This document shows, piece by piece, positions 18,131 through 61,470 of a DNA stretch of 64,000 nucleotides. The notes under the pieces were generated by a model. The model was not told the DNA's origin and searched no databases. It saw nothing but the letters and a program-made list of their open reading frames with translations. Position 1 is the stretch's first letter, and each line of letters begins with the position of its first letter. The translations under genes were made by a program, and so were the position numbers. Source of the DNA: Minisyncoccota bacterium (GTDB lineage: Bacteria; Patescibacteriota; Minisyncoccia; 2-02-FULL-40-12; IGHO2-12-FULL-4); assembly GCA_036517795.1 (NCBI GenBank), contig DATDTF010000011.1:9772-73771 (forward strand). The letters are read 5' to 3'.

Positions 18131-20329
18131 CTACTCAAAATGCCTAATCTTCTGAAATTTAGCTAACTGATTTTTTAGAGCAGGATAACTTTTAAGATTT
18201 GGATCTTCCTTCAGTAAAAGCTTGGCTTCTAGCCGGGCTTTTTTTATTAGGTCTAAATCAGTCAAAGAAGCCATGGCTAAGTCAGGCAAGCCGGATTGTT
18301 TAGTACCGACAAATTCTCCCGGTCCGCGTAACAACAAATCTTGTTCAGCCAACTTGAAGCCGTCATCGGAAATCTCCAAAGCCCTTAGCCTCTTATTCTC
18401 AAAACGATTATTGCCGCCATTAACCAAAAAACAATACGACTGATGTTCCGCTCGCCCAACCCGGCCGCGAAACTGATGCAGTTGCGACAGTCCGAATCTT
18501 TCAGCATTCTCAATTAACATTACTGTAGCATTGGGAACATCCACTCCGACCTCAACAACCGAGGTGGATACCAAGATCTGATACTTTCCGTTTTTAAAAT
18601 CTTCCATTATTTTTTCCTTTTCTTTAGGCTTCATTTTTCCGTGAAGCATGGCAATCTTAAAATTAGGAAAAACTTTTTGTGAAAGTTTTTCATATTCGGT
18701 AGTGACGGCTTTGACTTCGGCCCACAAAATATTCATCTTGTTTTGTTGGGCAGAAGTTTTTACTGCTTCTTGCGGATTGCTAAGTTCGATGCGGGGACAT
18801 ATAACAAAAGTCTGCCGACCAGACAGAATTTCCTTTTCAACAAAACCGTAAACTTCGGCAGACTTATCTTTTGCAAAAACTTTGGTAATAATTTTCTTTC
18901 GGTCTTTCGGCTTTTCTTTAATTAAGGAAACGTCCAAGTCGCCGTATATAGTTAGCGCGAGTGTTCGTGGTATTGGCGTTGCAGTCATAGAGAGCAAATG
19001 TGGTGTCAAGGGTGCGGGGGATTGGGCGTCCCAGTGCCGATATTGCTTTGCCGGTATTTCTTCCCTTGTCCCTTGTCCCTTTACCAGTTGCATTCTCTGC
19101 TTTACACCAAAACGATGCTGTTCATCTATTATTATCAATCCCAAATTTTTAAATTTAACATCTTTTTGTATAACTGCGTGTGTGCCGACAACTATATCTA
19201 TCTCGCCATTTGAGATTTTCTTTTGCATTAAATTTTTAGAGATTTTTTCTTCAGTAACTTCGTCTATCGGCCACTGTTTTGCCTCACTTCCAGTCAGTAA
19301 ACCCACCCTGGTCCTTAATCTGCCAAGCAACGACTTTATGGTTGCATAATGCTGTTGCGCCAATATCTCCGTTGGTGCCATAAAAACCGTTTGAAAACCC
19401 GAGTTGGCGGTCTGACAGGCGGCAATAATCGCAACGATTGTCTTGCCTGAACCGACATCGCCATTTAATAGCCTATTCATAGGATAACTTCTGCCAAAAT
19501 CTTTCATAATCTCAAAAGCGCAAACCCTCTGATCATTAGTCAAAACAAACGGCAAGCTCCCGACAAACCCTTTTACCAACTCCGGTTTGAAAATTACCGA
19601 AGGCGCTTTAAGTTTGGAAAGACCGCGCCGACCCAAAAGAGACTTGATTTGAAACAAAAGCAATTCATCAAAGGCAACCCTTTTTCTGGCAACTCCAGCT
19701 TCCTCTAAAGATTCCGGAAAGTGAATTGTCTTTATTGCTAGGTCCAAGCTGGGAAAATTATATTTTTTTCTTACGTTTTCCGGCAGATGATCGGAAAACT
19801 TATCTGTAGCACCTAGCAAAGGTTTTATTAAAAAACGAAGGTATCTGGAGGAAATGCCCTCTGTCTCCGGATAGACAGGCACTAGTCTGCCGGTATGGAC
19901 CAAGTCAATCTTGGTCTCAAAAATTTTTTCATACGAAGGGCTGGAAAGATAAATTCCCCGCTTATCCAAAGCCACCTTACCGGATAAGCTGACGAGACTT
20001 CCTTCGACAAGAGAGTTTTCTATATATGGCTGATTAAACCAAACAGCTCTGGTCTGTTCATCACCGTCTTTTATGTGAGCCTCTGTTATGGACATCCGGC
20101 GGCGCCAAATATTAGTCGTTTTTATCTTCGCCACCTCGCCTATGATACTGATCACTTTGCCGACTTCTCCAACCTCACCCAGACCAACTGTTTGAGTGAA
20201 ATCTTCGTAACGGCTGGGAAAATGCCAGAGCAAATCTTTGACAGTTTTAATGCCCAGCCTTTTCAGTCTCGGCAAATTCTTAGGCCCAACTTTAGGCAAT
20301 TTTTCTATAGGAGTAAGCAAATCCAGCAT
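18131..20329 (-). CDS. recG: ATP-dependent DNA helicase RecG
   Basis: 732 aa. Walker A GDVGSGKT. DEQHRFGV. MTATPIPRTL. Carries an in-frame repeat-derived insertion (see findings). Confidence 0.85.
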   Translation of the reverse strand: MLDLLTPIEKLPKVGPKNLPRLKRLGIKTVKDLLWHFPSRYEDFTQTVGLGEVGEVGKVISIIGEVAKIKTTNIWRRRMSITEAHIKDGDEQTRAVWFNQPYIENSLVEGSLVSLSGKVALDKRGIYLSSPSYEKIFETKIDLVHTGRLVPVYPETEGISSRYLRFLIKPLLGATDKFSDHLPENVRKKYNFPSLDLAIKTIHFPESLEEAGVARKRVAFDELLLFQIKSLLGRRGLSKLKAPSVIFKPELVKGFVGSLPFVLTNDQRVCAFEIMKDFGRSYPMNRLLNGDVGSGKTIVAIIAACQTANSGFQTVFMAPTEILAQQHYATIKSLLGRLRTRVGLLTGSEAKQWPIDEVTEEKISKNLMQKKISNGEIDIVVGTHAVIQKDVKFKNLGLIIIDEQHRFGVKQRMQLVKGQGTREEIPAKQYRHWDAQSPAPLTPHLLSMTATPIPRTLALTIYGDLDVSLIKEKPKDRKKIITKVFAKDKSAEVYGFVEKEILSGRQTFVICPRIELSNPQEAVKTSAQQNKMNILWAEVKAVTTEYEKLSQKVFPNFKIAMLHGKMKPKEKEKIMEDFKNGKYQILVSTSVVEVGVDVPNATVMLIENAERFGLSQLHQFRGRVGRAEHQSYCFLVNGGNNRFENKRLRALEISDDGFKLAEQDLLLRGPGEFVGTKQSGLPDLAMASLTDLDLIKKARLEAKLLLKEDPNLKSYPALKNQLAKFQKIRHFE
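19025..19054. repeat. MITE-derived fragment in frame within recG
   Basis: ggcgtcccagtgccgatattgctttgccgg. Its reverse complement matches the MITE 3' end (caatatcggcactgggacgcc). It encodes KQYRHWDAQ, a roughly 16 aa extra segment between DEQHRFGV and MTATPIPRT. Confidence 0.6.
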
Positions 20330-25896: not shown

Positions 25897-25924
25897 ATCT
25901 TAATTTTTAACTTTTTCAATTAAA

Positions 25925-25990
25925 GACTGTCTAACTTCGACGGTCAAGATAACCTCGGTTTTCAACTTCGGAAGCTAAGAGGTTTCTTTT
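25925..25990. repeat. dispersed repeat (family 2 copy)
   Basis: tgtctaacttcgacggtcaag..cggttttcaacttcggaagctaagaggtttc is near-identical to part of 22558..22730. Confidence 0.6.
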
Positions 25991-26319
25991 ATTCGACGGG
26001 TTACGTTTTCTATTTTCGCCGCCCTTTCTTCTGTTTCGTCCAGGACAAAAAACAATTTGGGTACCGGACGCATTTGCAGTTTCTTGTTAAGTGTTTGTTG
26101 AAAAAAATATATGCTTCTGTTGATACTCTCCAGAGCCTGCCGGCCGGCGTCCAGAGGAAAAACAGAAACATAAACCCTAACGTGGTTTAAATCTTCAGAA
26201 ACAACCGCCCTGGTAACTGTAACCAGAGCTTCAACATCAAGATCAAGTTCGCGATGCAAAATCTTGCCCACTTCATCTCTAATCAAATCATTTATTTTTT
26301 CCCGACGATGAGAGTCCAT
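25975..26319 (-). CDS. rbfA: ribosome-binding factor A
   Basis: 114 aa immediately downstream of infB. RbfA-like N-terminus. Confidence 0.7.
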   Translation of the reverse strand: MDSHRREKINDLIRDEVGKILHRELDLDVEALVTVTRAVVSEDLNHVRVYVSVFPLDAGRQALESINRSIYFFQQTLNKKLQMRPVPKLFFVLDETEERAAKIENVTRRIKETS

Positions 26320-26321
26320 GA

Positions 26322-27893
26322 TTATAGAGATTTTTTAATTCTTTCTTCTTCATAAACCTCCAGGATGTCTCCTTCTTTAACAAACATATTTGGAGCGATT
26401 GGCTGGCCGAAATCAACTCTTAAACCGGCTTCCAAACCTTCTGCAACTTCTTCCACATCCGCTTTTTGCTGTTGAAGCTGTCCGAGTTTTCCTTTCGTTA
26501 TTACATTACTGTTTCTAGTCACCTCAATCAATGCGCCTCTCTTGATTTTACCAGAAATCACTTTTCCTCCCACAACCTGATTTTTAGGGTCCTTTTTGAA
26601 TAAGGCCAACACCTTAAGCCTACCCAAGGAAATTCTATTAATTTCCGGATCTAAAAGGTCGGACATCTTTCTTTTTACCTCCTCCACCAGCTCATAAATT
26701 ATGTCAAAAGATTCTACCACTATCCCATCCCTTTCCGCCATTTGACGGAGAGAACTACTGGCCGGAACATGAAATCCCACCACCATAGACTTTGTCGCTA
26801 TGGCTTTTTTGATGTCACCTTCCGAGATGTTGCCAATGCCAAAATCCACAACTTTGTATCCGACTTCTTCTGATTTTATTGTTCTCAAAACTTGGTCAAT
26901 TGCCTCAAGAGAGCTTGAGACGTCAGCTTTAACTATTAAATTCAGACTTTTATTTTTACTCTTTTCCGGCCCGCTTGCTTGAATAAAAATTACCGGCCGG
27001 CCAAGAATTGAATTCTCTTTAGCTAACTTCAAAGCTTCTTCTCTGGAATCACTTCTCTTCACAACTTCGCCCAAAACCGGAGAGCTGGCCCAACCCAAAA
27101 CTACCGCCGGCTGTGACGGACCAGCCTTAGTCAAATTCCTACCTAAGAAATCCGCCATTGATTTAATTCTAACTGCTTCCGGGCCGGTTATAATCCAGTC
27201 ATTTGTATGAAAGAACCCGCTTTTGACTAAAATGGTAGCCACATGACCGCGTCGATTATCCAAATAGGAATCAATTATAACTCCCGTAGCAGAAGCATCA
27301 TCTGATTTAAGCTCTTCCAATTCGGCTACTAAAAGAATCATCTCCAACAAAGAATCTATACCTTGACCGGTTTTCGCTGAAACTTCTATTACCGGCGTCT
27401 TGCCGCCCCACTCTTCTATGAAAACATTGTTTTCTGAAAGTTCCTGCTTAACCTTCTGCACATTAGCGTTTTCTTTGTCTACTTTATTTATGGCGACAAT
27501 AAAAGGCGTCTTAGTCTCTTCAATAATTTTGATGGCTTCCTTTGTCTGAGGTTTTACACCCTCATCGGCGGCCACAACTAAAATTGCCACGTCAGCCACA
27601 TTAGCACCTCTGGAGCGTATGGCTGAAAAAGCCTCATGACCGGGAGTGTCCAGAAAAGTTATGGTGCGCAAGCTCGGCAGTGCAATATCGGAGGTTGGTT
27701 GGTTGTCTTTAGTTGACACTTCTACCTGATAAGCACCGATGTGCTGGGTAATCCCACCTGCTTCTCCTTCGGCAATTTTGGTTTTACGAATGTAATCCAA
27801 AATTTTAGTCTTACCATGGTCAACATGTCCCAAAACAACCACAATTGGTGGTCTGGTTTGAAAATTTACCTTTTTTTCCTGTGTTTCTGCCAT
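26322..27893 (-). CDS. infB: translation initiation factor IF-2 (short form)
   Basis: G-domain motifs [16 protein letters not shown] and NKVD. Beta-barrel domains. Carries an in-frame repeat insertion before DTPGH. Confidence 0.9.
   Translation of the reverse strand: [523 protein letters not shown]
27669..27702. repeat. MITE 5'-end fragment in frame within infB
   Basis: Minus strand reads caaccaacctccgatattgcactgccgagct and encodes [11 protein letters not shown], absent from canonical IF-2 between GAYxVE and ITFLDTPGH. Confidence 0.65.
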
Positions 27894-33530: not shown

Positions 33531-33645
33531 TTAAAATTTCAATTGAAAAATATCACAAAAGTGATAGAATGGCAACCGACGGCGTGAAAACTCGGCAAAG
33601 AAAAATATCGGCAGATAAGAGATTTGTGGATTTCGTCAGCTTACT

Positions 33646-33726: not shown

Positions 33727-35199
33727 ATGAAACTACCCGAAGAAGTAAAATTGATTTTAGAAAAGCTAACTGAAAACAATTTTCAGGCTTTTGTTGTTGG
33801 TGGCTGTGTGCGCGATTTATTGATGGGCAAAGAACCAAAAGACTGGGACGTAACAACAAATGCCAAGCCCGAAGAAATACAAAAAATTTTTCCTGACAGT
33901 TTTTATGAAAACGAGTTTGGTACGGTAGGCGTAAAGGTTTCAAGGAAAGTAAGCCCTCCGAATGCCGATATTGCAAATTCTCTTCAAGTAGTTGAGGTTA
34001 CTACCTACAGAACCGAGTCCAAATACACCGACAAAAGACATCCCGACAAAATTGAATTTGCCGACAAGCTTGAGGACGATTTAAAAAGAAGAGACTTCAC
34101 TGTTAATGCACTGGCCATGGACAGTGAGGGAAATATTATTGACCTTTTTAATGGGCAGAATGATTTGAAAAAAAAGATTGTTAAGGCCGTCGGCAATGCC
34201 GAAGAAAGGTTCTCTGAAGACGCTTTGCGCATGATAAGAGCAATAAGACTGGCTACGGTATTGGGCTTTGAGATTAAGACTGAAACACTGAAAGCCATCA
34301 AAGCAAAGCACTTACTAATGCAAATAATTTCAAAAGAGAGAATCAGGGATGAATTTGTAAAAATTATAAATTCTCCAGAGGCAAAAGCCGGCATGGAGTT
34401 GTTAAGAGAGACTGAACTAATGAGATATGTTGTTCCGGAAATCCTTGAAGGAGTCGGGGTGGAACAGAACCTCCACCATATTTATACTGTCTGGGAACAC
34501 AACGTCCGTGCTCTGCAATATGCCTGCGATAAAAACTATTCCACCGAAGTAAGGCTGGCTTCTTTACTGCATGATATCGGCAAACCCAGAGCAAAAAGAG
34601 GGGAGGGTAGAAATTCCACTTTTTATGGACACGAAGTTGTGGGAGCCAGAATGACTGCTCAAATTCTTGATCGTTTGAAATTGTCCAAAAACCAGACAGA
34701 TAAAATCACTAAATTGGTCAGATGGCATCTTTTCTATTACAATGTCGGCGAAGTTACCGAAAGCTCGGTTAGACGCTTGGTTGCTAATATAGGCAAGGAA
34801 AACGTTGAAGATTTGATTAAAGTCAGGGAGGCCGACCGTATTGGTTCCGGTACACCCAAGGCCAAGCCCTATAAGCTCCGCCATTTACAGTTTGTAATTG
34901 ATAAAGTGGCCCGAGATCCAATATCTCCAAAGATGCTTAAAGTTAACGGCAACGATATTATGAAACTCTTAGATATGGTTCCCGGACCAAAAATCGGTCT
35001 GATTATGTCCGCATTAATGGACGAAATACTTGACGACCCGACCAAAAATACCAAAGATTATTTAGAAAAAAGGGTAGAGGAACTAAGCAAACTTCCAGAC
35101 AAAGAACTTCTGAACTTGGGTCAGCAGGGAAAATCCAAGCTGGCTGAAGAAGAAGAAAAAGAAGTGGAGAAAATTAAGCAAAAGCATTTTGTAAGTTAA
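33727..35199 (+). CDS. cca: CCA-adding tRNA nucleotidyltransferase with HD domain
   Basis: FVVGGCVRDLLMG...DWDV head-domain motifs. HDIGKP HD motif. Embedded in a tRNA cluster. Confidence 0.85.
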   Translation: MKLPEEVKLILEKLTENNFQAFVVGGCVRDLLMGKEPKDWDVTTNAKPEEIQKIFPDSFYENEFGTVGVKVSRKVSPPNADIANSLQVVEVTTYRTESKYTDKRHPDKIEFADKLEDDLKRRDFTVNALAMDSEGNIIDLFNGQNDLKKKIVKAVGNAEERFSEDALRMIRAIRLATVLGFEIKTETLKAIKAKHLLMQIISKERIRDEFVKIINSPEAKAGMELLRETELMRYVVPEILEGVGVEQNLHHIYTVWEHNVRALQYACDKNYSTEVRLASLLHDIGKPRAKRGEGRNSTFYGHEVVGARMTAQILDRLKLSKNQTDKITKLVRWHLFYYNVGEVTESSVRRLVANIGKENVEDLIKVREADRIGSGTPKAKPYKLRHLQFVIDKVARDPISPKMLKVNGNDIMKLLDMVPGPKIGLIMSALMDEILDDPTKNTKDYLEKRVEELSKLPDKELLNLGQQGKSKLAEEEEKEVEKIKQKHFVS

Positions 35200-39856: not shown

Positions 39857-41833
39857 ATGCCTAGTGGTCTTTTTGAAGGTTTAAACGAAAAACAATTAGA
39901 AGCAATACAGACCACGGAAGGTCCTGTTTTGGTTATTGCCGCCGCCGGCAGCGGTAAAACCAAGGTTCTGACTCACCGAATTGCCCACCTCATTCAGCGA
40001 GGGATAAAACCAGAAAACATACTGGCGGTCACTTTCACAAATAAAGCGGCGGGTGAGATGAGAGAGCGAGTTCGCAATTTACTCAAAAACTCTTCTGTTT
40101 TACCGCTACTTGGCACATTCCATTCAATATCAGCAAGGTTGTTAAGAAACGAGCTCGGGAAACTTGATTTGCCTTATGACTCTAATTTCGTGATTTACGA
40201 CACTGAAGACCAGCTGGGCGTTATCAAAAAGGTTATGGAGGAGTTGGAAATTGATAGTAAGAAAACAAATCCTCGGGCTATCCTTTCCAGAATATCGGAA
40301 GCGAAAACAAACTTAGCCGGACCAGAAGAGTATGTGAAATCCGCAAAAGATTTTTTCTCAAAAACAGTCGCCAGGATTTATCCGCTTTACCAAAAAAATC
40401 TTGAAACCAGCAACGCGATGGACTTTGATGATCTTCTTTTTTTGACAGTGAAAATGCTTAAACAAGAGAAAAACATACTGGAAAAATATCAAAACCTCTT
40501 TAGATATATCCTGGTTGATGAATACCAAGACACAAACAAACCACAATATCTTTTTCTGAAAATGCTGGCCCAAAAGCATAAAAATATTATGGCGGTGGGA
40601 GACGACTATCAATCAATATATTTATTCCGCCAGGCTGACATCCGTAATATTTTGAGTTTTGAAAAAGACTATCCGGAAGCTAAAATTGTTTTTTTGGAGC
40701 AAAACTATCGTTCCACCCAAAATATTCTGGCTGCCGCCCAGAACATAATCTCAAATAATAAGTTCCAGCGACATAAAAATCTCTGGACTGAAAATCAGGA
40801 AGGGGAAAAAATACTGCTCGCCGAACTCAGCAACGAAAGGGAAGAAGGCGGATTCATAACCGACGAAATAAAGAAGGGTCTGAAAACCGGCGCTGATTTG
40901 AACGACTTTTGCATCCTGTACCGAACGCACGCCCAGTCGCGTGCAATTGAAGAAGCCATGTTAAAAGCCGGTTTGCCTTACAAAATCATCGGCGGTTTAA
41001 AATTCTATGAGAGAAAAGAAGTTAAAGACATTTTAGCTTATTTGAGACTTCTGCTTAACCCGACAGACAACTTCAGTTTAGAAAGAATACACAACGTGCC
41101 AAGCAGGGGAGTAGGCAAAAAAACTTTTGAGAAGATATTGGAAACACAAAAACAGAAATCTTCCAAAAGCGTTTTTGAACTTTTCAAAGACCATAGAGAA
41201 GAATTAGACAAAAAGGCTTTATCCGGTTTAGCTTCGCTGAGCAAAACCATGAACAGCTTGGAAGAAAAACTGGACGAATTTTACCTCTCAAAACTTATAA
41301 AAAAACTTCTTCAGGAGATTGATTACCAAAAATTTCTTCAGGAAAAAACCGTTGACAGCGAGTCCCGCTGGGAAAACGTAAAAGAGCTTCTGACAGTTAC
41401 GGCAAAATATGACAGTTTGAAATCCCGTGAATCTCTTCCGATTTTTCTGGAAGAAGTTTCACTTATACAGGAAACGGATCAAATCAAAAACCAAGAAAAA
41501 AATGTAACCCTCATGACGATGCACGCTTCCAAAGGTTTGGAATTTCCTACCGTTTTTTTAGCCGGCATGGAAGAAGGACTATTCCCTCATCCCAGGTCGA
41601 CTCTTGATCCGGTTGAATTGGAAGAAGAGAGAAGGCTATGCTACGTCGGAATCACCAGAGCCAAAGAAAAACTTTACTTGACTCATTGTCAAAACCGCAT
41701 GGTTTATGGCTCTTCACAATTCAACCCAATCTCAAGATTTGTTTCTGAAATACCAGAGGACTTTGTCTCCGAAAACGCAAAAAAACCATTTAGGCGAGAT
41801 TTTAATTATGAGGACTTCATAGATTATGATTAA
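39857..41833 (+). CDS. pcrA: ATP-dependent DNA helicase PcrA/UvrD
   Basis: LNEKQLEAIQ..GPVLVIAAAGSGKT Walker A. DEYQDTN motif. 658 aa. Confidence 0.85.
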   Translation: MPSGLFEGLNEKQLEAIQTTEGPVLVIAAAGSGKTKVLTHRIAHLIQRGIKPENILAVTFTNKAAGEMRERVRNLLKNSSVLPLLGTFHSISARLLRNELGKLDLPYDSNFVIYDTEDQLGVIKKVMEELEIDSKKTNPRAILSRISEAKTNLAGPEEYVKSAKDFFSKTVARIYPLYQKNLETSNAMDFDDLLFLTVKMLKQEKNILEKYQNLFRYILVDEYQDTNKPQYLFLKMLAQKHKNIMAVGDDYQSIYLFRQADIRNILSFEKDYPEAKIVFLEQNYRSTQNILAAAQNIISNNKFQRHKNLWTENQEGEKILLAELSNEREEGGFITDEIKKGLKTGADLNDFCILYRTHAQSRAIEEAMLKAGLPYKIIGGLKFYERKEVKDILAYLRLLLNPTDNFSLERIHNVPSRGVGKKTFEKILETQKQKSSKSVFELFKDHREELDKKALSGLASLSKTMNSLEEKLDEFYLSKLIKKLLQEIDYQKFLQEKTVDSESRWENVKELLTVTAKYDSLKSRESLPIFLEEVSLIQETDQIKNQEKNVTLMTMHASKGLEFPTVFLAGMEEGLFPHPRSTLDPVELEEERRLCYVGITRAKEKLYLTHCQNRMVYGSSQFNPISRFVSEIPEDFVSENAKKPFRRDFNYEDFIDYD

Positions 41834-42758
41834 AGATAAAATAGTGAATAAAAAATATCAACCATCTTCCGACATTGCACTGCCGAGCTTTAGCGCCGTC
41901 AGCAAAAGTAAACCAAAAAGGGACTTCGCCAAAGGCGCGGAATGTCAAAGACAAGCTCAACATCGGCATCGGGACGCCAAAAAACTAGGACAAAACTTTC
42001 TAAAAAACACCGGAATACTTAAATCCATCGTTGGGATGGCTGAAATTTCAGCCGACGATATTGTTTTGGAGGTAGGCGCCGGCACGGGTCTGCTCACAGA
42101 GAAGCTAGCCGAAACCGGAGCCAAAATAATTGCTGTTGAAAAAGACCGGAACTTGATTCCGATTCTGGAAACCAAGTTTAAAAATCAAAAAAATGTTACA
42201 ATAATTGAAGGCGATATATTAAGGTTCGACCTTAATCTGACCAAGGTCGAACCTTGGAAATACAAGGTAGTGGGAAACATTCCGTATTATCTAACTTCGC
42301 ATTTGATAAGAAAAGTTTTAGAAGATTGGCCCACACCAAAACTAATTTTGTTCATGTTACAAAAAGAGGTGGCTCAAAGGATAGTTGCCAAACCTCCGAA
42401 AATGAACTTGCTTGCCTTATCTGTCCAGCTTTATGCGGACGCCCAGATAATGAGGAGCGTCTCAAAGAAAAATTTCTGGCCAGAACCAAAAGTTGATTCA
42501 GCTTTAATAAAAATACTGCCTAAAGACCGAGACGCAAAAGAAAAAAATGACATTGAAAAGATTTTGAAATTAGCTCGTTTGGCTTTTAGCGGTAAAAGAA
42601 AACAAATACTAAACAGTCTTTCAACCGGATTAAAAATTCCAAAGGAAAAACTTATCGGTACACTTCAGGAAGCCGGCATTGACAGCAAAAGACGCCCCGA
42701 GTCTCTAGAAATCAGCGAATGGTTAAAACTAAACCAAACTTTATCTTCGCAGTTTTAG
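41826..42758 (+). CDS. rsmA: 16S rRNA (adenine1518/1519-N6)-dimethyltransferase RsmA/KsgA
   Basis: KKLGQNFL start-of-family motif. SAM-binding VLEVGAGTGLLT. The roughly 50 aa N-terminal extension is encoded by a MITE copy. No in-frame ATG lies between the element and the KsgA core. Confidence 0.75.
   Translation: MIKDKIVNKKYQPSSDIALPSFSAVSKSKPKRDFAKGAECQRQAQHRHRDAKKLGQNFLKNTGILKSIVGMAEISADDIVLEVGAGTGLLTEKLAETGAKIIAVEKDRNLIPILETKFKNQKNVTIIEGDILRFDLNLTKVEPWKYKVVGNIPYYLTSHLIRKVLEDWPTPKLILFMLQKEVAQRIVAKPPKMNLLALSVQLYADAQIMRSVSKKNFWPEPKVDSALIKILPKDRDAKEKNDIEKILKLARLAFSGKRKQILNSLSTGLKIPKEKLIGTLQEAGIDSKRRPESLEISEWLKLNQTLSSQF
41868..41976. repeat. MITE-like element, full-length copy (about 109 bp) inside the rsmA 5' region
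   Basis: 5' tccgacattgcactgccgagctttagc ... aaaagggacttcgccaaaggcg ... caacatcggcatcgggacg 3'. Terminal inverted repeats CCGAYATTG/CAAYATCGG. Confidence 0.7.
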
Positions 42759-48807: not shown

Positions 48808-49299
48808 ATGAGAAATATCTACAGTCCAATTGAAGTTGATGACGACTCTTTACTGCTTGACGACGAAAAGCACGAGTTGTTTTACTCAAAAATTAATGCC
48901 TTGCCTCAAAACATTCAAGACTTGCTTTTTTCTTTGGACACAGAGGATAAATTAAAAAATATAGCTGTTCAAACCAAACTAAACCAGAATCAATCCATCG
49001 AGCTGACTCGCTTGGTTAGGGATGTGTTGATAAATGAAATCTATCTTGGAGACATAATCAAAGAGTCACAAAAACGCCTTGTTGTTAGTGAAGAATTTGC
49101 CCGTGAAATTGCCAACCAAATTGTTTCTGTAATTCTTGCTCCTGCCCTTGAAGATATTAAAAAAATTCACGTTGAGAAGTTCGGACGTCCCGCTGCCGAC
49201 GTTGCCACGCCTTCTAACAGCAAGTCACAAATCCCAGAAAGAGACAAGCCCCAGATAATAAACCCTGGCAATATAGTAAATCTTAGAAACAAAAATTAG
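48808..49299 (+). CDS. hypothetical protein (163 aa) in T4SS-like operon
   Basis: ORF only. 6 nt after the upstream stop. Confidence 0.3.
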   Translation: MRNIYSPIEVDDDSLLLDDEKHELFYSKINALPQNIQDLLFSLDTEDKLKNIAVQTKLNQNQSIELTRLVRDVLINEIYLGDIIKESQKRLVVSEEFAREIANQIVSVILAPALEDIKKIHVEKFGRPAADVATPSNSKSQIPERDKPQIINPGNIVNLRNKN

Positions 49300-51991: not shown

Positions 51992-52660
51992 ATGGCCGAC
52001 CAAATAGAAGAATCGTCCGAAAATGAAACTGATGAAGAAGAAGCGATAGCTTTAGTTTTTCAAACTGAACAAGAACTAAATTTGGCCAAACAGAGATTGC
52101 TGGCAGTTTCAGAAGAAGGACAAAGCTATAAAAACCCTTCTTTACTAAAATATGGATTTTTATTTTTTGTCGCTGGTGCCATAGATGCCGTTGATTTTTT
52201 GGATTTGACAGGTGCGGGCATAATAATTGCAAAGATAGTTTCTATAGCCGGAACTTGTATTATATATTTCACTTTATGGCTTACCGACAGCCGATTCAAA
52301 AAAGCCCATGAACTTATTGGCAATCTGGAAGAAGCAATCTTGGATGTTCAGCAAAAAGCAGCCAGAGTAAGCAGTTTGGCAATGAGAACATCTCGAGTTC
52401 TTAGCAAGATACCTGGCATGAAAGGATTGGCCAGAAGAATACCGAGAACTATGGTTAAAATTAGACGATTAGCCCGTAAAAACCCGCTTACGAAAGTTCT
52501 AATTGGAGGTGCAATTAACCTCATACCATTTCTGGCAATAATTAATCTAATGATAGTTTGGGTATGGCTAAATTATCACGACGAGAAAAAAGCCTTCAAG
52601 CACGCCCGACAGTCATCACAAGAGGCGTTAACACAAATTGAAATGACGGGAACAGCATGA
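51992..52660 (+). CDS. membrane protein (222 aa), acidic N-terminus, 3 TM, in T4SS-like operon
   Basis: ORF with clear TM helices. Occupies the position of VirB8/PrgL-like proteins. No motif support. Confidence 0.3.
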   Translation: MADQIEESSENETDEEEAIALVFQTEQELNLAKQRLLAVSEEGQSYKNPSLLKYGFLFFVAGAIDAVDFLDLTGAGIIIAKIVSIAGTCIIYFTLWLTDSRFKKAHELIGNLEEAILDVQQKAARVSSLAMRTSRVLSKIPGMKGLARRIPRTMVKIRRLARKNPLTKVLIGGAINLIPFLAIINLMIVWVWLNYHDEKKAFKHARQSSQEALTQIEMTGTA

Positions 52661-52686
52661 TAAAGTAGAGTCAGTGGTAAGAAACT

Positions 52687-52795
52687 CAATTTAATTCCGA
52701 TATTGCTCTGCCGAGCTTTAGCAAGTGTCAGCTGGGATAAAGTCAAAAGGGACTTTGCCAAAGGCGGAGTGTGTCAAAGACAAGAACAATATCGG
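52687..52795. repeat. MITE-like element, full-length copy (intergenic)
   Basis: ccgatattgctctgccgagctttagc...aaaagggactttgccaaaggcgg...caatatcggcattgggacg. About 80% identical to the 41868 copy. Confidence 0.7.
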
Positions 52796-52805
52796 CATTG
52801 GGACG

Positions 52806-53900
52806 ATGAACCAAAAAACAATTCTTACAATTCTAATACTTGTGCTGGCTGGTATAGTAACCTTTTTGGGAGGCTACCTTTTGGCAAACAAAGGCACCGG
52901 ACAAACTGCCAACATAGCCGGACTGAACCGTTTTTCAAATTTCTCCGCCAATAAGCCCGAATCTGAAAAAACCACTACAGTAAAGTTAAACCGCTTGAGC
53001 AGTGTCAAGGTTGTGAGTCCGGCCATTTCTGAAAACGGCAGAAATATTAACTACTTTGAAAAGGGCACGGGAAAAATTTTCTCCAGTGACTTTGCCGGAC
53101 AAAGCATTAATATTATCAACGGCAACATTAAAGAAGACGTTACCGGAGCTGTCTGGTCAAAAAACGGTTGGCAAGCAGTTGTCGCAAGAAAAACTTCCCG
53201 CGGACAAGTTTTTAGCCTGTCTGACTTAAAAATTGACATATTAACAGATCTAAATGAAAAGATGTCAGGAATAACCTGGTCTCCGGACGGACAAAAAATA
53301 GCTTACTTGTTTTTTGACTCTTCAGCAGAAGAAGGAAACATCAGTATTGCAAATCCCGATGGCTCATCCTTTAAAAACGTTCTGCCCACCAGAAATAGCC
53401 AATTAAAAATATCTTGGCCCAGTAAGGATAGCCTTGCTTTCTATAGTCCGAGTGGGGTAGACCGAAGTTTGTTCCTGCTAAATATGGAAACTGGGGAGCT
53501 GGAGAAAATTTTGGAGTCAGCCAACAACTTAAAAACTCTCTGGTCTCCAGATGGCTTAAATTTAATTTATTCTCACAGCAAAGAGGACGGTAGTGTAGTG
53601 ACAAACTTGCTTCAACTTAAAGAAGATAACCGTTCTGTTTTAGATCTCAGCCTGCAGACCAATGCCGATAAATGCGTTTGGAGTTTAAACTCACAAAAAT
53701 TTTATTGCGGAGGAACTAAAGCCGACGGCGCGGAGGAGGGTCTTTATGAATTTGACCTAACTAAAAAGGAATTTGGTTTGGTGTTTCAGTCCAGTTCTGT
53801 CGACCAAATTGAAATTGAAAAACCTTTCTTATCACCAGTAGAAAATTTCATCTTTTTTACAAACGGCTACGATCAGTATCTCTTCTCTATTAGCCTTTAA
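52806..53900 (+). CDS. secreted PD40/TolB-like beta-propeller repeat protein
   Basis: N-terminal TM/signal (MNQKTILTILILVLAGIV). Repeated WSPDGxxIAY / WSPDGLNLIYS motifs. Start trimmed to exclude repeat-encoded residues. Confidence 0.5.
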   Translation: MNQKTILTILILVLAGIVTFLGGYLLANKGTGQTANIAGLNRFSNFSANKPESEKTTTVKLNRLSSVKVVSPAISENGRNINYFEKGTGKIFSSDFAGQSINIINGNIKEDVTGAVWSKNGWQAVVARKTSRGQVFSLSDLKIDILTDLNEKMSGITWSPDGQKIAYLFFDSSAEEGNISIANPDGSSFKNVLPTRNSQLKISWPSKDSLAFYSPSGVDRSLFLLNMETGELEKILESANNLKTLWSPDGLNLIYSHSKEDGSVVTNLLQLKEDNRSVLDLSLQTNADKCVWSLNSQKFYCGGTKADGAEEGLYEFDLTKKEFGLVFQSSSVDQIEIEKPFLSPVENFIFFTNGYDQYLFSISL

Positions 53901-53939: not shown

Positions 53940-54455
53940 TTATATTATTAGAGGTCGAATCACCACTCTTCTTTCCGGCTCTTCACCGATGCTCTCCGTT
54001 TCCAAATCCGGATGGGAAGCCAATTCAACGTGAATCAAGCGTCTTTCATAAGATGACATTGGATCCAAAGCTTCAGCTTTTTTGCTGACCTTGACCCTGT
54101 TTGCCACTTCCAAAGCCTTTTCTACCACCTGCTGTACTCGCAGCTTTCTATAGTCGTTAATATCAACCATAAAAGAGAAAGGTTTAGGAGACGGGGAAGT
54201 ATTTAAAAGTTTAGTTTTTTTGAAATACAGAAGTTTGATTATGTGTTCGACGGCCTTTATGTTCTGGCCGTTTTTTCCTATCAAAGCGCTCAAGTCTTCA
54301 TTCGAGCTGACGGCAACAACCTTCAGACTTTGATCTTTCTCATTAGAAAAAATATTCACACTTGTTTCATAGCCAAGTTTATCCAGAACGTCTTTGGCAA
54401 CGTTTTCTAAAATTACGGGCTTTTCGTCTATTTTTTCATTTAGATTTTCGTTCAT
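53940..54455 (-). CDS. jag: Jag/KhpB RNA-binding protein (KH + R3H)
   Basis: 171 aa downstream of yidC. R3H-like C-terminus (EPERRVVIRP). Confidence 0.6.
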   Translation of the reverse strand: MNENLNEKIDEKPVILENVAKDVLDKLGYETSVNIFSNEKDQSLKVVAVSSNEDLSALIGKNGQNIKAVEHIIKLLYFKKTKLLNTSPSPKPFSFMVDINDYRKLRVQQVVEKALEVANRVKVSKKAEALDPMSSYERRLIHVELASHPDLETESIGEEPERRVVIRPLII

Positions 54456-54464
54456 TTTAGTAAC

Positions 54465-55199
54465 CTAGCTCGGCAAATTGGGAAATTTTTTGTTTATATA
54501 TAACTGTTCAAACATTGAAAACAAAGTGGTAACCGCCCAATATAAAACAAGTCCGGCTGGCAACTTCCAGCCAATAATTATAATCATAATTGGGAAAAAA
54601 TACAACATTTGCTTATTCATTGCCCCCATGCCAAAACTATCTTTTAAAGCCTCTTTGGAGCCAGAATCTGCCGTTTGTCCTTGCTTTGCAAAACTAAGCT
54701 TGGAGTGAAAAAACTGAAAAGCGCCGGAAATAACGGCCAAAGCCGGGCTGTTTTTTGACAAATCAAAAAAACCGAAAGAGATGCTGTTTATGGTATCGGG
54801 GTTTTTTATAAAACCGTAGAGCAGACCCAAACTCTCCGGCTTAAAGCCGTTGGCAAAAGCTCTATACAAAGCGAACAACACGGGAAGCTGGATTATGAGA
54901 GGTAAACAACCGGAAGCCGGATTAACTTTATTTTCTTTGTAGAGAGCCATGACTGCTTGGGCTTGGGCTGCCTTATCGTCTTTGTACTTCATCTGCAACT
55001 CCTTAATTTTCGGCTGAAGCCTAGCCATCAGTTTTTGTGAACGCAAAGCTTTGACAGACAGCGGCATGAAAATCAATCTTACCAATAATGTCAAAACTAT
55101 TATTGCCAAACCGAAGTCGGACCCTGGAATCAGGTTGTAGATAAAAACTAAAAAATTAAATATTGGTCTGTATAAAGCCTCGTTAAAAATGGTTGACAT
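54465..55199 (-). CDS. yidC: membrane protein insertase YidC/Oxa1 (short form)
   Basis: 244 aa, 5 TM. Conserved position in the rpmH-rnpA-yidD-yidC-jag block. Confidence 0.8.
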   Translation of the reverse strand: MSTIFNEALYRPIFNFLVFIYNLIPGSDFGLAIIVLTLLVRLIFMPLSVKALRSQKLMARLQPKIKELQMKYKDDKAAQAQAVMALYKENKVNPASGCLPLIIQLPVLFALYRAFANGFKPESLGLLYGFIKNPDTINSISFGFFDLSKNSPALAVISGAFQFFHSKLSFAKQGQTADSGSKEALKDSFGMGAMNKQMLYFFPIMIIIIGWKLPAGLVLYWAVTTLFSMFEQLYINKKFPNLPS

Positions 55200-55200
55200 A

Positions 55201-55458
55201 TTAAATCAAGTCTTGGCCGCCCAAAGGATGGCACTTGCTTATTCTTTTTAAACTTAAAATTGAGCCCTTAATCAAACCCTGCTCTTGAATAGCTTCAGTA
55301 AAATAATCAGAGCAGGTAGGATAAAATCGGCAGCTTGTCGGAAAAAAAAGATGAGGAGACACTGCCAACAAATAAGAAAAGTTTCTTTTATAAACTCTTG
55401 TCACTTCTTGCAATATCTTAACGAACAGTTTGTTGTTTAAAATTTTATTAGACATCAC
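55201..55458 (-). CDS. yidD: membrane protein insertion efficiency factor YidD
   Basis: [10 protein letters not shown]...CHPLGGQD motif. Confidence 0.7.
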
Positions 55459-55467
55459 TTAACAGAG

Positions 55468-55809
55468 CTAGACAATATTGGCTTTTCTAAAAATTTCTAA
55501 TAGACTCTCTTTGGCTTCCGAAAATTTATTTTCTTTGAGGCTTGATTGGATGACGACAACGACATCAACATGTACTTTACAAAAAGTAAAAACTGACGCC
55601 AAAACACTAAAAACAATTCTTTTAACCTTATTCCGCAAAACTGCGTTTTGAATAAATTTTGATGGAACTATTACAGCTCCCCGGCAAAACGAAAAACTGT
55701 TTTTAGATACTTTCACCAGCAATAAATGACTTCTAAAACTTCTGCCTGCTTTAAAAATCCGATCTAAATCTTTTTTGCTCTTGATTCTGTGCTTTTTAGA
55801 TAGAGCCAT
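55468..55809 (-). CDS. rnpA: ribonuclease P protein component
   Basis: 113 aa, basic. Located between rpmH and yidD. Confidence 0.75.
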   Translation of the reverse strand: MALSKKHRIKSKKDLDRIFKAGRSFRSHLLLVKVSKNSFSFCRGAVIVPSKFIQNAVLRNKVKRIVFSVLASVFTFCKVHVDVVVVIQSSLKENKFSEAKESLLEIFRKANIV

Positions 55810-55821
55810 GTCATTTTCAGC

Positions 55822-55959
55822 TTAAACAGTAAGCTTGTGCCGGCCTTTGCGTCGGCGTCTTAACAGCACTTTTCGCCCTGATTTTTTCTGTGATCTTTTC
55901 AAAAATCCGTGCTTGTTTTTCCTCTTTTTGGTTTTAGGACGATATAATGTTGATTTCAT
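55822..55959 (-). CDS. rpmH: 50S ribosomal protein L34
   Basis: Not in the ORF track (45 aa). Manual translation gives MKSTLYRPKTKKRKNKHGFLKRSQKKSGRKVLLRRRRKGRHKLTV. Confidence 0.85.
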   Translation of the reverse strand: MKSTLYRPKTKKRKNKHGFLKRSQKKSGRKVLLRRRRKGRHKLTV

Positions 55960-55981
55960 ATAAGTAATATATACTATTCTG

Positions 55982-56092
55982 CCGATATTGCAATTTGCCG
56001 AGTTTTCACACTACCAGCTGGGATTAGGTAATTAGTGACCGCTGACAACGTCGGGCTCGTGAAATTCAAAAAGTTCAATATCGGCATTGGGG
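55982..56092. repeat. MITE-like element, full-length copy between rpmH and dnaA
   Basis: ccgatattgcaatttgccgag...cagctggga...ttcaatatcggcattgggg. Same terminal inverted repeats and central CAGCTGGGA as the 52687 copy. Confidence 0.65.
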
Positions 56093-56206
56093 CGGTCATC
56101 CACTTTTTATAAACAATTTATAAACTAAAGCACTCTGTTTTTAAGTCTGCCTGTTTATCTTAGAATTAGGGAAGAATAAATAATGAGCAACGATAATTAA
56201 TTAACT

Positions 56207-56243
56207 CCCGACATTGACACTGCCGAACTTTAGCACCGTCAAC
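56207..56243. repeat. MITE 5'-half solo copy
   Basis: cccgacattgacactgccgaactttagcaccgtcaac. Confidence 0.5.
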
Positions 56244-56271
56244 TAGAAGAAAGTAATTAGGAAAAACAAAT

Positions 56272-57636
56272 ATGACCAAAGAAGAATTATGGAAAGCTGT
56301 TTTGGGAGAGATGGAGCTTTCTCTTTCCAAAGCCAACTTTACCACCTGGTTTAAAAACACTTCCATATTAGCCAATGAGGGGGTTTTGGTCATAGTCGGA
56401 GTCCCTAACGGATTCATCAAAGAATGGTTAGAAAACAAATTCCATAAACAGATACTGACTTCTATACAAACTTTTTCTCCGGAAATTAGAGAAATTAAAT
56501 ACACCATCGGCAACAGTTTACCCCAATCAACTATCAAAAAGGATTTTTCTCAATTCATTACAGAACGGGTGTTTGAAAACAAACAACCTGCCGATATTAA
56601 TCCCCAAACGAATTTAAACAAAAAATATTCTTTTGACTCTTTTATCGTCGGTTCTCACAATGAGTTGGCTCATGCCGCAAGCTCGGCTGTAGCCAAAAAT
56701 CTCGGTAAGGCTTATAACCCTCTGTTTATTTACGGTGGAGTCGGTTTAGGAAAAACTCATTTATTACAAGCTACCGGCAACAAGATTCTGGAAGACGACC
56801 CGACCAAAAAAGTCCTTTATATTCCTTCAGAAAGAATTACGGCTGAAATTGTTGAGTCTGTAAGAAATAAAAATGTTGAAGAACTTAAAAGTAGGTATGC
56901 AAAACTGGACATGCTTATTGTTGACGATATTCAGTTCATAGCCGGAAAAGAAAAAACTCAAGATATCTTTTTTGCAACCTTTAATGAGCTGTATGGGAAG
57001 AACAAGCAGATCATCTTATCATCAGATAGGCCGCCTAAAGCAATACCTGCATTGGAAGAAAGACTTAGATCCCGTTTTGAAGGGGGAATGATTGCCGATA
57101 TAAACATACCCGACTTTGAAACGAGACTGGCTATTTTGAAGCTAAAAACTAAACAAAAGGATATTATTTTAGATGAAAATGTCCTGGGTTACATAGCAAC
57201 AAATATACAAAAAAATATAAGAGAACTGGAAGGCGCTTTAAACAGAATTATTGCTGTAAGCCAGATTTATAACAAAACTCTGGATGTTAAAGAGGTTAAA
57301 AAACTGCTGGCGACTTACTTGAGTACACCCTATAAAAAAACTACACCTCAATTGATTTTAAAGTCAGTTTCTGACTTCTACAATATTTCGCCAAGCGATT
57401 TAATAAAAAGAAGCCGCAAGAAAGAGGTGGTAAGACCCAGACAGATTGCCATGTATTTATTGAGAGAAGAAACCAAATCGTCTTTTCCGGAAATCGGTCA
57501 GAAGTTAGGAGGTAGAGACCACTCCACAGTAATTCATGCTTATGAAAAAGTAAAAACAGAAGAAGAAACGGATGAAATTACAAAACAAGAGATTGTTTTA
57601 ATCAAAGAAAGAATATATCAATCCTTTGATAAATAA
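56272..57636 (+). CDS. dnaA: chromosomal replication initiator DnaA
   Basis: AAA+ Walker A GGVGLGKTHLL. DnaA N-terminus. C-terminal DNA-binding domain (RPRQIAMYL..GGRDHSTV). Confidence 0.9.
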   Translation: MTKEELWKAVLGEMELSLSKANFTTWFKNTSILANEGVLVIVGVPNGFIKEWLENKFHKQILTSIQTFSPEIREIKYTIGNSLPQSTIKKDFSQFITERVFENKQPADINPQTNLNKKYSFDSFIVGSHNELAHAASSAVAKNLGKAYNPLFIYGGVGLGKTHLLQATGNKILEDDPTKKVLYIPSERITAEIVESVRNKNVEELKSRYAKLDMLIVDDIQFIAGKEKTQDIFFATFNELYGKNKQIILSSDRPPKAIPALEERLRSRFEGGMIADINIPDFETRLAILKLKTKQKDIILDENVLGYIATNIQKNIRELEGALNRIIAVSQIYNKTLDVKEVKKLLATYLSTPYKKTTPQLILKSVSDFYNISPSDLIKRSRKKEVVRPRQIAMYLLREETKSSFPEIGQKLGGRDHSTVIHAYEKVKTEEETDEITKQEIVLIKERIYQSFDK

Positions 57637-57884
57637 GTTAAAATAATTGTTGATAAGGTTGTTAACATTTTTGGGATTACTGGATGACAGTTTGAGTACA
57701 ACTTTCAACTTACAAATATTTTTTGAAAGTTAAGCTATTTTTCTACCAAGGTTATTAAATCTTTATCAACAGTATTTCCTATAAATAAAATATGAAAAAG
57801 ATTTTATTTATCAATGTTTTCTAACTGTTATCCACAATTATTGCTATCTTAATAATAGTAATAATAAATCTTTATCTAATTATT
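57637..57884. promoter_or_regulatory. probable oriC (DnaA boxes plus AT-rich unwinding element) in the dnaA-dnaN spacer
   Basis: Perfect TTATCCACA at 57828-57836. TTATCAACA-type boxes near 57652 and 57771. Long A/T tracts (aataatagtaataataaatctttatctaattattatgattat). Confidence 0.5.
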
Positions 57885-58976
57885 ATGATTATTACAGTCA
57901 ATCAAAAAAACCTTAAAAGAAGTCTGACTTTGGTGGAAAGAATTGTTTCCAAGAATCTTACTTTACCGGTACTCCAAAATATTGTTCTAAAAACAGAAAA
58001 CGGAAGACTAAAAATATCATCAACTAATCTTGAAATTGGGATGAATTCTTGGATTGGAGCAAAAATTGAAGAGGAGGGAGAGATAGCAGTGCCGGCAAAA
58101 GTGTTTTCTGACTTTATTGACAATATACAGGATGAAAAAATAACCATAAATTCCAAAGAACATGTTATTTCAATAAACTCTGACAGTTATAAAACTAAAA
58201 TTATTGGTTTTTCGGCCAAAGACTTTCCAATCATACCAAGGGTAAAAGAAAACAGTTTTATCAAAATTCCGTCACAAGAATTTTTAGAGATACTGTTGAC
58301 CGTTATTGATTCGGTTTCTTTGTCAGAAAGCAGGCCGGAGCTGTCAGGTATTTTAATTAATTTTTCTGCTGACAAAATTGAAGGGGCGGCAACTGACAGT
58401 TTCAGATTGGCCGAAAAAGTTTTAAATATAAAAAATAGCAAACCAGAACAAAGCATCATTCTTCCAAGAGTAACGGCACAAGAGTTGATCAGAATTCTTC
58501 CGGGACTAGAAAATATTTCTATTTCAATTTCAGACAATCAGATATTTTTTGTTTCTGAAGATTTGGAAATTGTTTCAAGATTGATAGACGGTTCTTATCC
58601 AGATTATAAAAAAGTCATACCGGAAAGGCGGATATCAAGAGTACTCGTAAAAAAAGAAGAAATTGAAAAAAGCGTGCGTTTAGCTGGAGTTTTTTCGTCT
58701 CACATTTCCGATATTAAAATAAATGGGGAAAGCGAGGGTTTGAGAATTGCCGCCAAAAATACTGACAAAGGAGAAGCTTCTTCATGGATTAGCAGCGCCA
58801 TTGTCAAAGATGAACCTTTTGAGGTAATGGTAAATTACAGATACTTAATGGATGGTTTAAAAATTATTCCCACAGAAAATATAGTTTTAGAGTTTACAGG
58901 AGAAGGCAATCCTTTAATTATAAGACCAGAAGAAAGAAAAGATATTACTTACTTGATTATGCCTTTGAGAAACTAA
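57885..58976 (+). CDS. dnaN: DNA polymerase III beta sliding clamp
   Basis: 363 aa directly after dnaA. Three-domain clamp size and pattern. Confidence 0.85.
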   Translation: MIITVNQKNLKRSLTLVERIVSKNLTLPVLQNIVLKTENGRLKISSTNLEIGMNSWIGAKIEEEGEIAVPAKVFSDFIDNIQDEKITINSKEHVISINSDSYKTKIIGFSAKDFPIIPRVKENSFIKIPSQEFLEILLTVIDSVSLSESRPELSGILINFSADKIEGAATDSFRLAEKVLNIKNSKPEQSIILPRVTAQELIRILPGLENISISISDNQIFFVSEDLEIVSRLIDGSYPDYKKVIPERRISRVLVKKEEIEKSVRLAGVFSSHISDIKINGESEGLRIAAKNTDKGEASSWISSAIVKDEPFEVMVNYRYLMDGLKIIPTENIVLEFTGEGNPLIIRPEERKDITYLIMPLRN

Positions 58977-61390: not shown

Positions 61391-61403
61391 GTGGCACGAT
61401 AGT

Positions 61404-61470
61404 CAACCAACTTCCGATATTGCGCTGCCGAACTTTTGCGCTTTGGAAGTTAGGTAGCCAGTTAGATTTA
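61404..61470. repeat. composite dispersed repeat (MITE 5' end plus family-2 segment)
   Basis: caaccaacttccgatattgcgctgccgaacttttgcg followed by ctttggaagttaggtagcc. Confidence 0.5.

Follow-up and report, generated by a model that had tools for sequence, protein, structure and literature searches.

Can a conserved bacterial gene be translated through a dispersed repeat, and if so from which start codon? The question is posed by rsmA (ksgA) of a Minisyncoccota bacterium (phylum Patescibacteriota), Yanofskybacteria-like by the names that the closest homologs of its RsmA, initiation factor 2 and CCA enzyme bear. The DNA analysed, referred to throughout as the window, is a stretch of 64,000 nucleotides (nt) from GenBank assembly GCA_036517795.1 (contig DATDTF010000011.1, positions 9,772 to 73,771), in which a copy of a repeat occupies the 5' part of the rsmA open reading frame (ORF). 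A preliminary description, made from the letters and a list of translated ORFs, held that the repeat encodes an N-terminal extension of RsmA and that either the repeat supplies the start codon or translation begins at a non-ATG codon. The extension is indeed encoded by the repeat, and neither proposal for the start has survived closer analysis. The most probable explanation is that a selfish repeat inserted at its usual position just after a stop codon, happened to lie, or came to lie, in phase and free of stops, and is translated from the ancestral ATG of rsmA as a tolerated, disordered N-terminal insertion.

The insert and its absence from relatives

One ORF, opened by an ATG and 310 codons long with the insert included, makes up the rsmA gene (41826–42758, plus strand), and the peptide quoted in the preliminary description is found exactly in its translation. 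The inserted unit of 142 nt begins 1 nt past the stop codon of the upstream uvrD/pcrA-like helicase gene, within rsmA codons 3/4, and specifies codons 4–51. Some 4 nt of the original codons 4–5 were lost, which leaves a net gain of 138 nt, or 46 codons. The repeat had been placed at 41859–41978 with a length of 109 bp. It is real, but its extent needed correction, the core being 41869–41976 (108 nt) and the inserted unit including a further 34 nt, here called module 0. A repeat search of the window pairs 41846–41984 with 52674–52813 at 71–78% DNA identity, and nhmmer models of the two ends of the element match 41858–41898 (E=3e-12) and 41943–41976 (E=3e-7) together with 6–8 other sites in the window. 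With a GC content of 0.54, the repeat core stands out from both the rsmA core (0.39) and the window (0.41).

The closest relatives of this RsmA (P0002, 81% identical; P0004, P0006, P0009, P0011) are proteins of 257–267 amino acids (aa) that start MIK(P/F/A)(L/S/K)KKLGQNFL; lacking the element, they also lack the extension, whose presence in such relatives had been named in the preliminary description as a refutation. Alignment of the DNA with loci L055, L054 and L001 leaves one clean gap of 138 columns in the relatives, between ATGATTAAA and AAAAA(C/T)T(A/G)GG. The extension is carried elsewhere only by P0001, which is 99% identical and encoded at a locus (L003) from another ENA sample; this locus is 99.3% identical to the window, with 24 mismatches, and has the same insertion. 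As L003 is an independent assembly, the insertion is not an assembly artefact.

At L001 and L002 (P0002 and P0003), the uvrD–rsmA spacer, 190 nt long in the closest relative, holds a different and unrelated palindromic element with the ends CCACCACGACACCTCT...AGAGGCGTCGTGGTTG (L001:2256–2447; L002:1–50), ahead of an intact MIKPLKK or MIRPSRK start. Internal inserts of other kinds, e.g. HPVNSAEGGAVKQQFNRV and QVAGYRLQEKDGNKKPETWPLKPET, are found in the Patescibacteria RsmA homologs P0008, P0046, P0067 and P0102. This suggests that RsmA gains inserts frequently.

The start codon of rsmA

The junction of the uvrD stop and the rsmA start, gattATGATTAAA at 41822–41834, is identical in L054 (P0009) and L055 (P0011), and the C terminus of UvrD, ...NYEDFIDYD*, is identical in L001, L054 and L055. 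The 8-nt overlap of the two genes, ATGATTAA, has been kept in the window, L054 and L055. The shared junction and the shared Met-Ile-Lys show that ATG 41826 is the ancestral rsmA start, lying upstream of the element and not brought by it. The 190-nt spacer of L001 had raised the suspicion that this ATG simply belonged to the end of uvrD in a different frame; the ancestral overlap in L054 and L055 rules this out. Conservation of the overlap further suggests that initiation on rsmA is coupled to termination on uvrD.

A scan of the codons offers the ribosome little else. The in-frame start candidates are ATG 41826 and GTG 41844, both 5' of the repeat core, and then ATG 42036, which is already past GQNFL. 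As had been pointed out in the preliminary description, no in-frame ATG, GTG or TTG separates the repeat from KKLGQNFL, with which the conserved core begins. This motif starts at codon 52 and not some 55 codons from the start. The only near-cognate codons between GTG 41844 and ATG 42036 are ATT 41874 and CTG 41880, both in the repeat, and from 41881 to 42014 there is no in-frame ATG, GTG, TTG, CTG, ATT, ATC or ATA. Nor did a scan of the 5' part of the ORF find an internal start with a ribosome-binding site, which had been named as an observation that would count against a repeat-encoded extension. The suggested non-ATG start is thus left with no candidate codon.

The RsmA core and its extension

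The protein is a member of the RsmA/KsgA family, with an RrnaAD domain (PF00398; residues 49–302, E=5.7e-57), the GxGxG motif and the catalytic motif N-[IL]-P-Y. Solved KsgA/RsmA structures in the PDB align to residues 51–305, the best match being KsgA 6IFS (E=7.5e-48). The core of 259 codons has no lesion and keeps all the invariant columns of an alignment of 36 sequences, including GxGxG (E82, G84, G86, G88) and NIPYY (N151-I-P-Y-Y155). AlphaFold, run on the same alignment, gives residues 1–52 a predicted confidence (pLDDT) of 42–52 and no secondary structure, against >90 for the methyltransferase core, so that the extension is predicted to be disordered and the methyltransferase fold untouched. 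The extension is basic, with seven lysines, four arginines and two histidines against five acidic residues and an isoelectric point of about 10; the tryptic peptide YQPSSDIALPSFSAVSK forms part of it. The segment before GQNFL ranges from 5 to 36 residues among RsmA homologs, and PDB alignments begin at chain residues 1–40. The length before GQNFL also varies among KsgA of Bacillus subtilis (6IFS), KsgA of E. coli (1QYR) and the eukaryotic Dim1/TFB1M, but there the variation is inherited and not the result of a recent repeat insertion.

Architecture and copies of the repeat family

Alignment of the copies shows a modular family: module 0, of ~34 nt and AT-rich, is followed by a 5' module (CCGAYATTGC-N-CTGCCGAGCTTT...), one of at least 3–4 alternative centres and a 3' module (GCAAYNTCGGCAYYGGGACG). 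The inverted repeats described at the outset as terminal, in the manner of a MITE (miniature inverted-repeat transposable element), do exist as 10-nt arms (CCGAYATTGC and GCAAYNTCGG) but are sub-terminal, with the ~34 nt of module 0 upstream and 10 nt (CAYYGGGACG) downstream. In canonical copies module 0 carries stop codons, usually TAA, in all three frames, e.g. in the type-I intergenic copies at L035, L042, L044 and L051.

The window holds three full copies (A in rsmA, B and C) and at least seven partial ones (Table 1). Beyond the window, searching 185,579 species genomes for the exact pattern turned up many copies in a single metagenome-assembled genome (MAG; CAYILQ01) and one copy in a MAG of Yanofskybacteria, and a scan of JGI metagenomes added about 20 contigs of the candidate phyla radiation (CPR; GC 0.38–0.49) from groundwater projects, tandem arrays among them. 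On this sampling, which used an exact 5'-module pattern and is hence biased towards copies that match it, the family appears to be widespread in groundwater Parcubacteria. Matches of the DNA pattern in proteobacteria (L005, L007, L017, L018, L020, L031 and others) were rejected as coding coincidences (..PDIALPSF..) in GC-rich genomes.

Table 1. Modules of the rsmA insert, the genes that it adjoins and other copies or pieces of the repeat in the window
Feature	Coordinates	Strand	Remarks
uvrD/pcrA-like helicase gene	39857..41833	+	Pfam UvrD-helicase/UvrD_C, E=6e-88; stop TAA 41831–41833 overlaps rsmA start
rsmA start, ancestral	41826..41834	+	ATGATTAAA (Met-Ile-Lys); 8-nt overlap with uvrD stop; same in L054, L055
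Inserted repeat unit (copy A), 142 nt	41835..41976	+	absent from relatives; net +138 nt = 46 codons
Module 0, AT-rich, 34 nt	41835..41868	+	...GAATAAAAAATATCAACCATCTT; from comparison with flanks of 26 full copies; stop-free in rsmA frame
5' module	41869..41903	+	arm CCGACATTGC (41869–41878), then CTGCCGAGCTTTAGC; encodes SDIALPSFSAV; nhmmer E=3e-12
Variable central module, type I	41904..41956	+	...AAAAGGGACTTCGCCAAAGGCGCGGAATGTCAAAGACAAGC; copy alignment gives at least 3 alternative centres between conserved ends
3' module	41957..41976	+	arm tCAACATCGG (41957–41966), then CATCGGGACG; encodes QHRHRDA; nhmmer E=3e-7
Conserved RsmA core	41979..42755	+	KKLGQNFL to C terminus; Pfam and PDB alignments; AlphaFold pLDDT >90 from about residue 57
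Antisense ORF across the element, 50 codons	41817..41969	-	by-product of stop-poor repeat; not considered a gene
infB in-frame remnant (5' module)	27666..27707	-	14-aa insert DNQPTSDIALPSLR in G-domain hairpin loop; same frame as rsmA
recG in-frame remnant (3' module)	19010..19072	-	~20-aa insert GTREEIPAKQYRHWDAQSPAP; same frame as QHRHRDA of rsmA; nhmmer E=1e-5
cca probable remnant (3' module, reverse)	33946..33975	-	~8-aa insert ..SPPNADIA..; nhmmer E=0.002
Reverse 3' module in hypothetical ORF 48808–49299	49183..49218	-	GRPAADVATPSN; nhmmer E=9e-6
Degenerate 5' module	33580..33625	-	beside tRNA-Arg; nhmmer E=5e-4
Copy B, canonical intergenic	52661..52805	+	directly after TGA of ORF 51992–52660; GGGACG end directly before ATG 52806
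Copy C, different central module	55975..56094	+	upstream of dnaA; from repeat and profile searches of the window
Copy D, 5' module only	56197..56239	+	33 nt upstream of dnaA start 56272; nhmmer E=4e-8
Copy E, 5' module only	61402..61441	+	between divergent genes; nhmmer E=1e-10

Some further features of the family may be recorded. Copies in tandem, repeating every 141, 143 and 88 nt, occur at L026:3884–4272, L013:5413–5874 and L004 (minus strand, 776–950); the duplication in the L004 array takes in the last seven codons of rpsC, and the three copies at L026 make up a stop-free run of 141 codons in frame with rplX. Another dispersed repeat family (..GTAGAAGTCTGACAACCTCTTAAGTAAG..) lies at 22562–22709, 25924–26004 and 18076–18119 of the window and sometimes follows immediately on the main family's 5' module (window 18055–18119; L032, L040), which indicates shuffling of modules. 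Two of the copies, C and D, are situated a short way upstream of dnaA (56272–57636), which with dnaN (57885–58976) stands at the minimum of cumulative GC skew (54000–58976), likely the replication origin, and at L010 a 5' module adjoins a perfect DnaA box (TTATCCACA). Copy E (61388–61456 with its surroundings) begins right at the start codon of gene 59291–61390 on the minus strand; on the plus strand it forms a mini-ORF of 22 codons, MWHDSQPTSDIALPNFCALEVR, probably without meaning. The 3' module reads in one frame as (G/N)N(I/V/F/L)G(I/T)GT, and large proteins encoded at L023:2–2056 and L008:300–700 have a repeated GNVGIGT whose DNA (GGCAACGTCGGCATCGGGACG) is closely like it; this may be a coincidence or a clue to the origin of the 3' module.

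Placement between stop and start codons

Outside ORFs, at least 14 independent copies have their GGGACG end directly against the ATG of a real gene, or share its G with a GTG (offset 0 or -1); this count excludes rpmJ and rplX cases missed by a gene-length filter. Such junctions are found at 52805/52806 of the window and at L004, L009, L019, L026, L029, L035, L036, L041, L042 and L044. The genes so abutted include rpsC, rplX, rpsH, rpsM, rpmJ and the window gene at 52806; many encode ribosomal proteins. At the other end, the distance from the upstream stop codon to the 5' arm is 35–37 nt in 8 of the 20 copies for which it could be determined, and is 36 nt at copy B. The canonical unit therefore fills the space from the stop codon of one gene to the start codon of the next. 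With 35 nt from the uvrD stop to its 5' arm, the rsmA copy falls within the mode of the family, and since uvrD and rsmA overlap, with no spacer between them, the usual post-stop position falls inside rsmA.

The cause of this placement could be choice of target, selection or function. A stronger version, which we consider unlikely, would make the repeat an intercistronic cassette, its ends mechanistically tied to the stop and the next start, and so more than tolerated junk. Possible causes would then be integration specific to stop/start junctions or a coupling independent of Shine–Dalgarno (SD) sequences, in which folding of the repeat brings stop and start together. The stop-poor frame encoding SDIALPS could, on the same account, have been selected so that the element survives at overlaps such as uvrD/rsmA or after landing in an essential gene, infB for example.

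In-frame copies in other genes

The repeat also lies in frame in other conserved genes of the window. Pieces of it in infB, recG and probably cca are missing from orthologs 75–86% identical. The infB insert is lacking in the initiation factor 2 (IF-2) orthologs P0122 (86%) and P0123 (84%), and the recG insert, which sits between the IDEQHRFG and PHLLSMTATP blocks, in the 86% identical RecG of L021. The probable cca insert is common to a subclade and missing in most orthologs, including P0245; it stands between conserved blocks where the length varies between lineages. All the insertion points fit the fold of the host protein, being the disordered N terminus in RsmA, a loop between QHIGAY and ITFLDTPGH in IF-2 and the intervals between conserved blocks in the CCA enzyme and RecG. 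On other contigs, the element is found at L008 within a frame that stays open for at least 892 codons and has hydrophobic, membrane-like stretches, and at L033, L038 and L024 within smaller ORFs. Among the 26 full copies, 10 are free of stops in the SDIALPS frame.

At the loop of the infB insert, longer forms of it are present in P0124-6 and P0133/4, and a full element lies in frame in infB of L023. The two closest IF-2 relatives are without the repeat-derived insert and more distant ones have it; either precise loss or repeated insertion could account for the pattern. The loop itself (QHIGAYQV-ITFLDTPGH, 27660–27720) is a hot spot of insertion across Patescibacteria, with unrelated inserts of 6–45 aa in many lineages. 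A second, unrelated family of in-frame inserts is seen in RecG of L021 (15290–17536; ..TLDPRLFAREFSSRGVADL..) and in the RsmA protein P0005 (..ALDPRLIAREFSGKRAVDL..). These two inserts are ~50% identical over 32 aa and the family does not occur in the window.

Structure and classification of the element

The arms of the element pair in 88% of cells in the alignment of 17 full copies. In the same copies, the two arm-variable positions do not co-vary, 379–434 of 500 shuffles reach the observed scores, and RNAalifold returns invariant pairs only, with no compensatory change. Folding of the element, put forward in the preliminary description as worth doing, gives a divided answer: the plus strand of copy A does no better than its shuffles (z=-0.76), but copy B and the minus strands do (z=-2.7 to -3.8), as would any inverted repeat. 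Searches with Rfam found only tRNAs and noise (the whole window at the gathering score and 41780–42020 at E<=10), with nothing at E<=0.5 for the element. A scan of its plus strand found no promoter- or terminator-like site and no SD sequence.

The MITE label, proposed at the outset, applies loosely. At ~142 nt the element is small; it has inverted repeats, if sub-terminal ones, and no transposase coding, and is dispersed, with dozens of copies in other Parcubacteria contigs. Two classical hallmarks of MITEs, target-site duplication and a related insertion sequence (IS), were looked for and not found. No duplication was seen at three comparisons of filled and empty sites (rsmA, infB, recG), copy B has a possible 4-nt duplication (ATGA) not seen elsewhere, and no pair of 5' and 3' modules around an ORF of transposase size was found in the limited sample of loci examined, which was not genome-wide. 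Repetitive extragenic palindromic (REP) units and bacterial interspersed mosaic elements (BIMEs) are GC-rich palindromes of 20–40 nt with a GTAG/CGTC head, linked to RAYT transposases. The present element is a modular unit of ~142 nt, and where GTAG does occur, in module 0 of some copies, no palindrome follows. By behaviour it belongs with the Rickettsia palindromic elements (RPEs), having in-frame copies in conserved genes and being absent there from close orthologs (rsmA, infB, recG and probably cca).

Alternative explanations

The history of the repeat at rsmA can be sketched. The 142-nt unit landed 1 nt after the uvrD stop and, owing to the 8-nt overlap, between rsmA codons 3 and 4. The copy would have happened to be, or would have become, stop-free in the rsmA frame, and the added 138 nt would keep the phase. 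Since there is no stop in this frame and the net gain is 138 nt, the ancestral ATG still opens an uninterrupted ORF. Translation would then proceed from ATG 41826, coupled to termination on uvrD, and the product would be an RsmA with a basic, disordered segment of 46 residues between Met-Ile-Lys and KKLGQNFL, a tolerated passenger sequence as with RPEs and not a new domain. We infer that this extended RsmA is made and active.

Several observations weigh against this account. The SD-like GAGGA at 11 nt from ATG 41826 is simply coding sequence of uvrD; an SD-like motif, however, stands before no more than 16 of the window's 40 long ORFs, so that little can be read from the weak context of this ATG. 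HMMER, run with the 46-aa peptide on 1.84 billion representative proteins, returned no match, so no wider use of it is evident. The window and L003, the only two carriers, are near-identical and have no difference within the insert, so that they can give no evidence of purifying selection on the open frame. A stop-free stretch of 47 codons in phase could simply reflect a recent event that has yet to decay, and more than a third of the full copies are open in the rsmA frame anyway. Finally, KsgA is dispensable in model bacteria, and loss of rsmA function would not be lethal.

The last three of these points are also what favours the idea that rsmA is becoming a pseudogene, the insertion having crippled its expression or activity and the open frame being a matter of chance in a young insertion. 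This is nevertheless distinctly unlikely. The core is intact with all its invariant residues, the insert is in phase and open even in module 0, which has stops in all frames at L035, L042, L044 and L051, the state is common to two samples, and the same element is in frame in infB, which cannot be a pseudogene. Somewhat less likely again is a mature enzyme like that of the relatives, obtained by initiation at some non-canonical codon downstream of the element, or else by removal of the extension after translation. The relatives need only 4–6 residues before KKLGQNFL, and with many genes here lacking an SD sequence unusual initiation is conceivable, but the frame offers neither a start nor a near-cognate codon in 41881–42014, the plus strand of the element has no promoter-like site or SD sequence, and there is no hint of a processing site.

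The strikingly regular stop-to-start placement, the pairing of the arms and the folding of copy B and the minus strands would suit an intercistronic structure acting as RNA (a processing site, a stabilizer or a means of juxtaposing stop and start), with ribosomes not reading through it in rsmA. We regard this as highly improbable, given invariant pairs without covariation, a plus strand of copy A that folds no better than its shuffles, no Rfam match, a central module freely swapped between copies and no start codon after the element from which ribosomes could translate rsmA. The view that the extension is an N-terminal domain of RsmA in its own right, ancestral or functional, its likeness to the repeat being secondary, can draw on segments of 20–35 residues at the N terminus of other Patescibacteria RsmA proteins. 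It is refuted, and its probability is close to nil: the nearest relatives have no extension and the DNA alignment has a clean gap there, an intergenic copy 10.8 kb away matches the DNA at 71–78% identity, the GC content differs from that of the gene, and the segment is predicted to be disordered and has no homologs in the protein search.

Comparison with known systems

The closest parallel to a selfish repeat translated within its host protein comes from Rickettsia, where RPEs lie in frame in genes and the enzymes, e.g. gmk, stay active (Ogata et al. 2000, as reviewed in PMC2229807 and PMC10969869). Both families consist of palindromes of ~100–150 bp in a reduced genome, are both intergenic and in frame in conserved housekeeping genes, take positions compatible with the fold, as in the active, insert-bearing gmk, and have old copies that decay by in-frame deletion. 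The likeness is one of behaviour, with no sequence kinship shown; homology is not expected because the phylum (Patescibacteria/Parcubacteria) is different and the core is GC-rich. Unlike RPEs, the present family has no single conserved peptide: its 5' module is read as SDIALPS in rsmA, infB, L033, L038 and L008, and its 3' half in varying frames. It differs also in its tandem arrays and in canonical copies tied to stop/start junctions, neither of which, to our knowledge, is known for RPEs.

In-frame fusion of bacterial MITEs to ORFs has been described for ERIC/RU-1, YPAL/RU-2, RU-3 and Correia elements (Delihas, PMC2229807, PMC2759123). The present element is likewise small, non-autonomous and dispersed, with inverted repeats and stop-free frames fused to host ORFs, which include, in the fusions described, N-terminal additions such as signal peptides. 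It departs from them in its sub-terminal repeats, its exchangeable centre, the lack of a TA or other duplication where one was looked for and the lack of a related IS among the loci examined. Pneumococcal BOX elements and enterobacterial BIMEs resemble it in having modules that occur alone or combined and in being intergenic within operons, but no sequence relationship is evident. We know of no particular note of BOX or BIME families residing in frame in essential genes. A literature search, of incomplete coverage, found no report of elements of this kind in CPR bacteria. The element is thus a new case of a known behaviour, that of palindromic elements residing in frame.

Implications

The genomes of the CPR, or Patescibacteria, are very small, and the organisms are presumed symbionts. 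Like Rickettsia, they carry selfish palindromic repeats inside essential and highly conserved genes, here those for the G domain of IF-2, RecG, RsmA and probably the CCA enzyme. This has consequences for gene calling and for the annotation of start sites in thousands of MAGs, and it accounts for some ‘CPR-specific inserts’ whose presence in conserved proteins has been a puzzle. Such insertions are also a natural experiment on the extra sequence that factors of ribosome biogenesis and translation tolerate. The strict stop-to-start placement of the family could, for its part, point to integration specific to gene junctions, or to translational coupling that is kept across a spacer of 143 nt.

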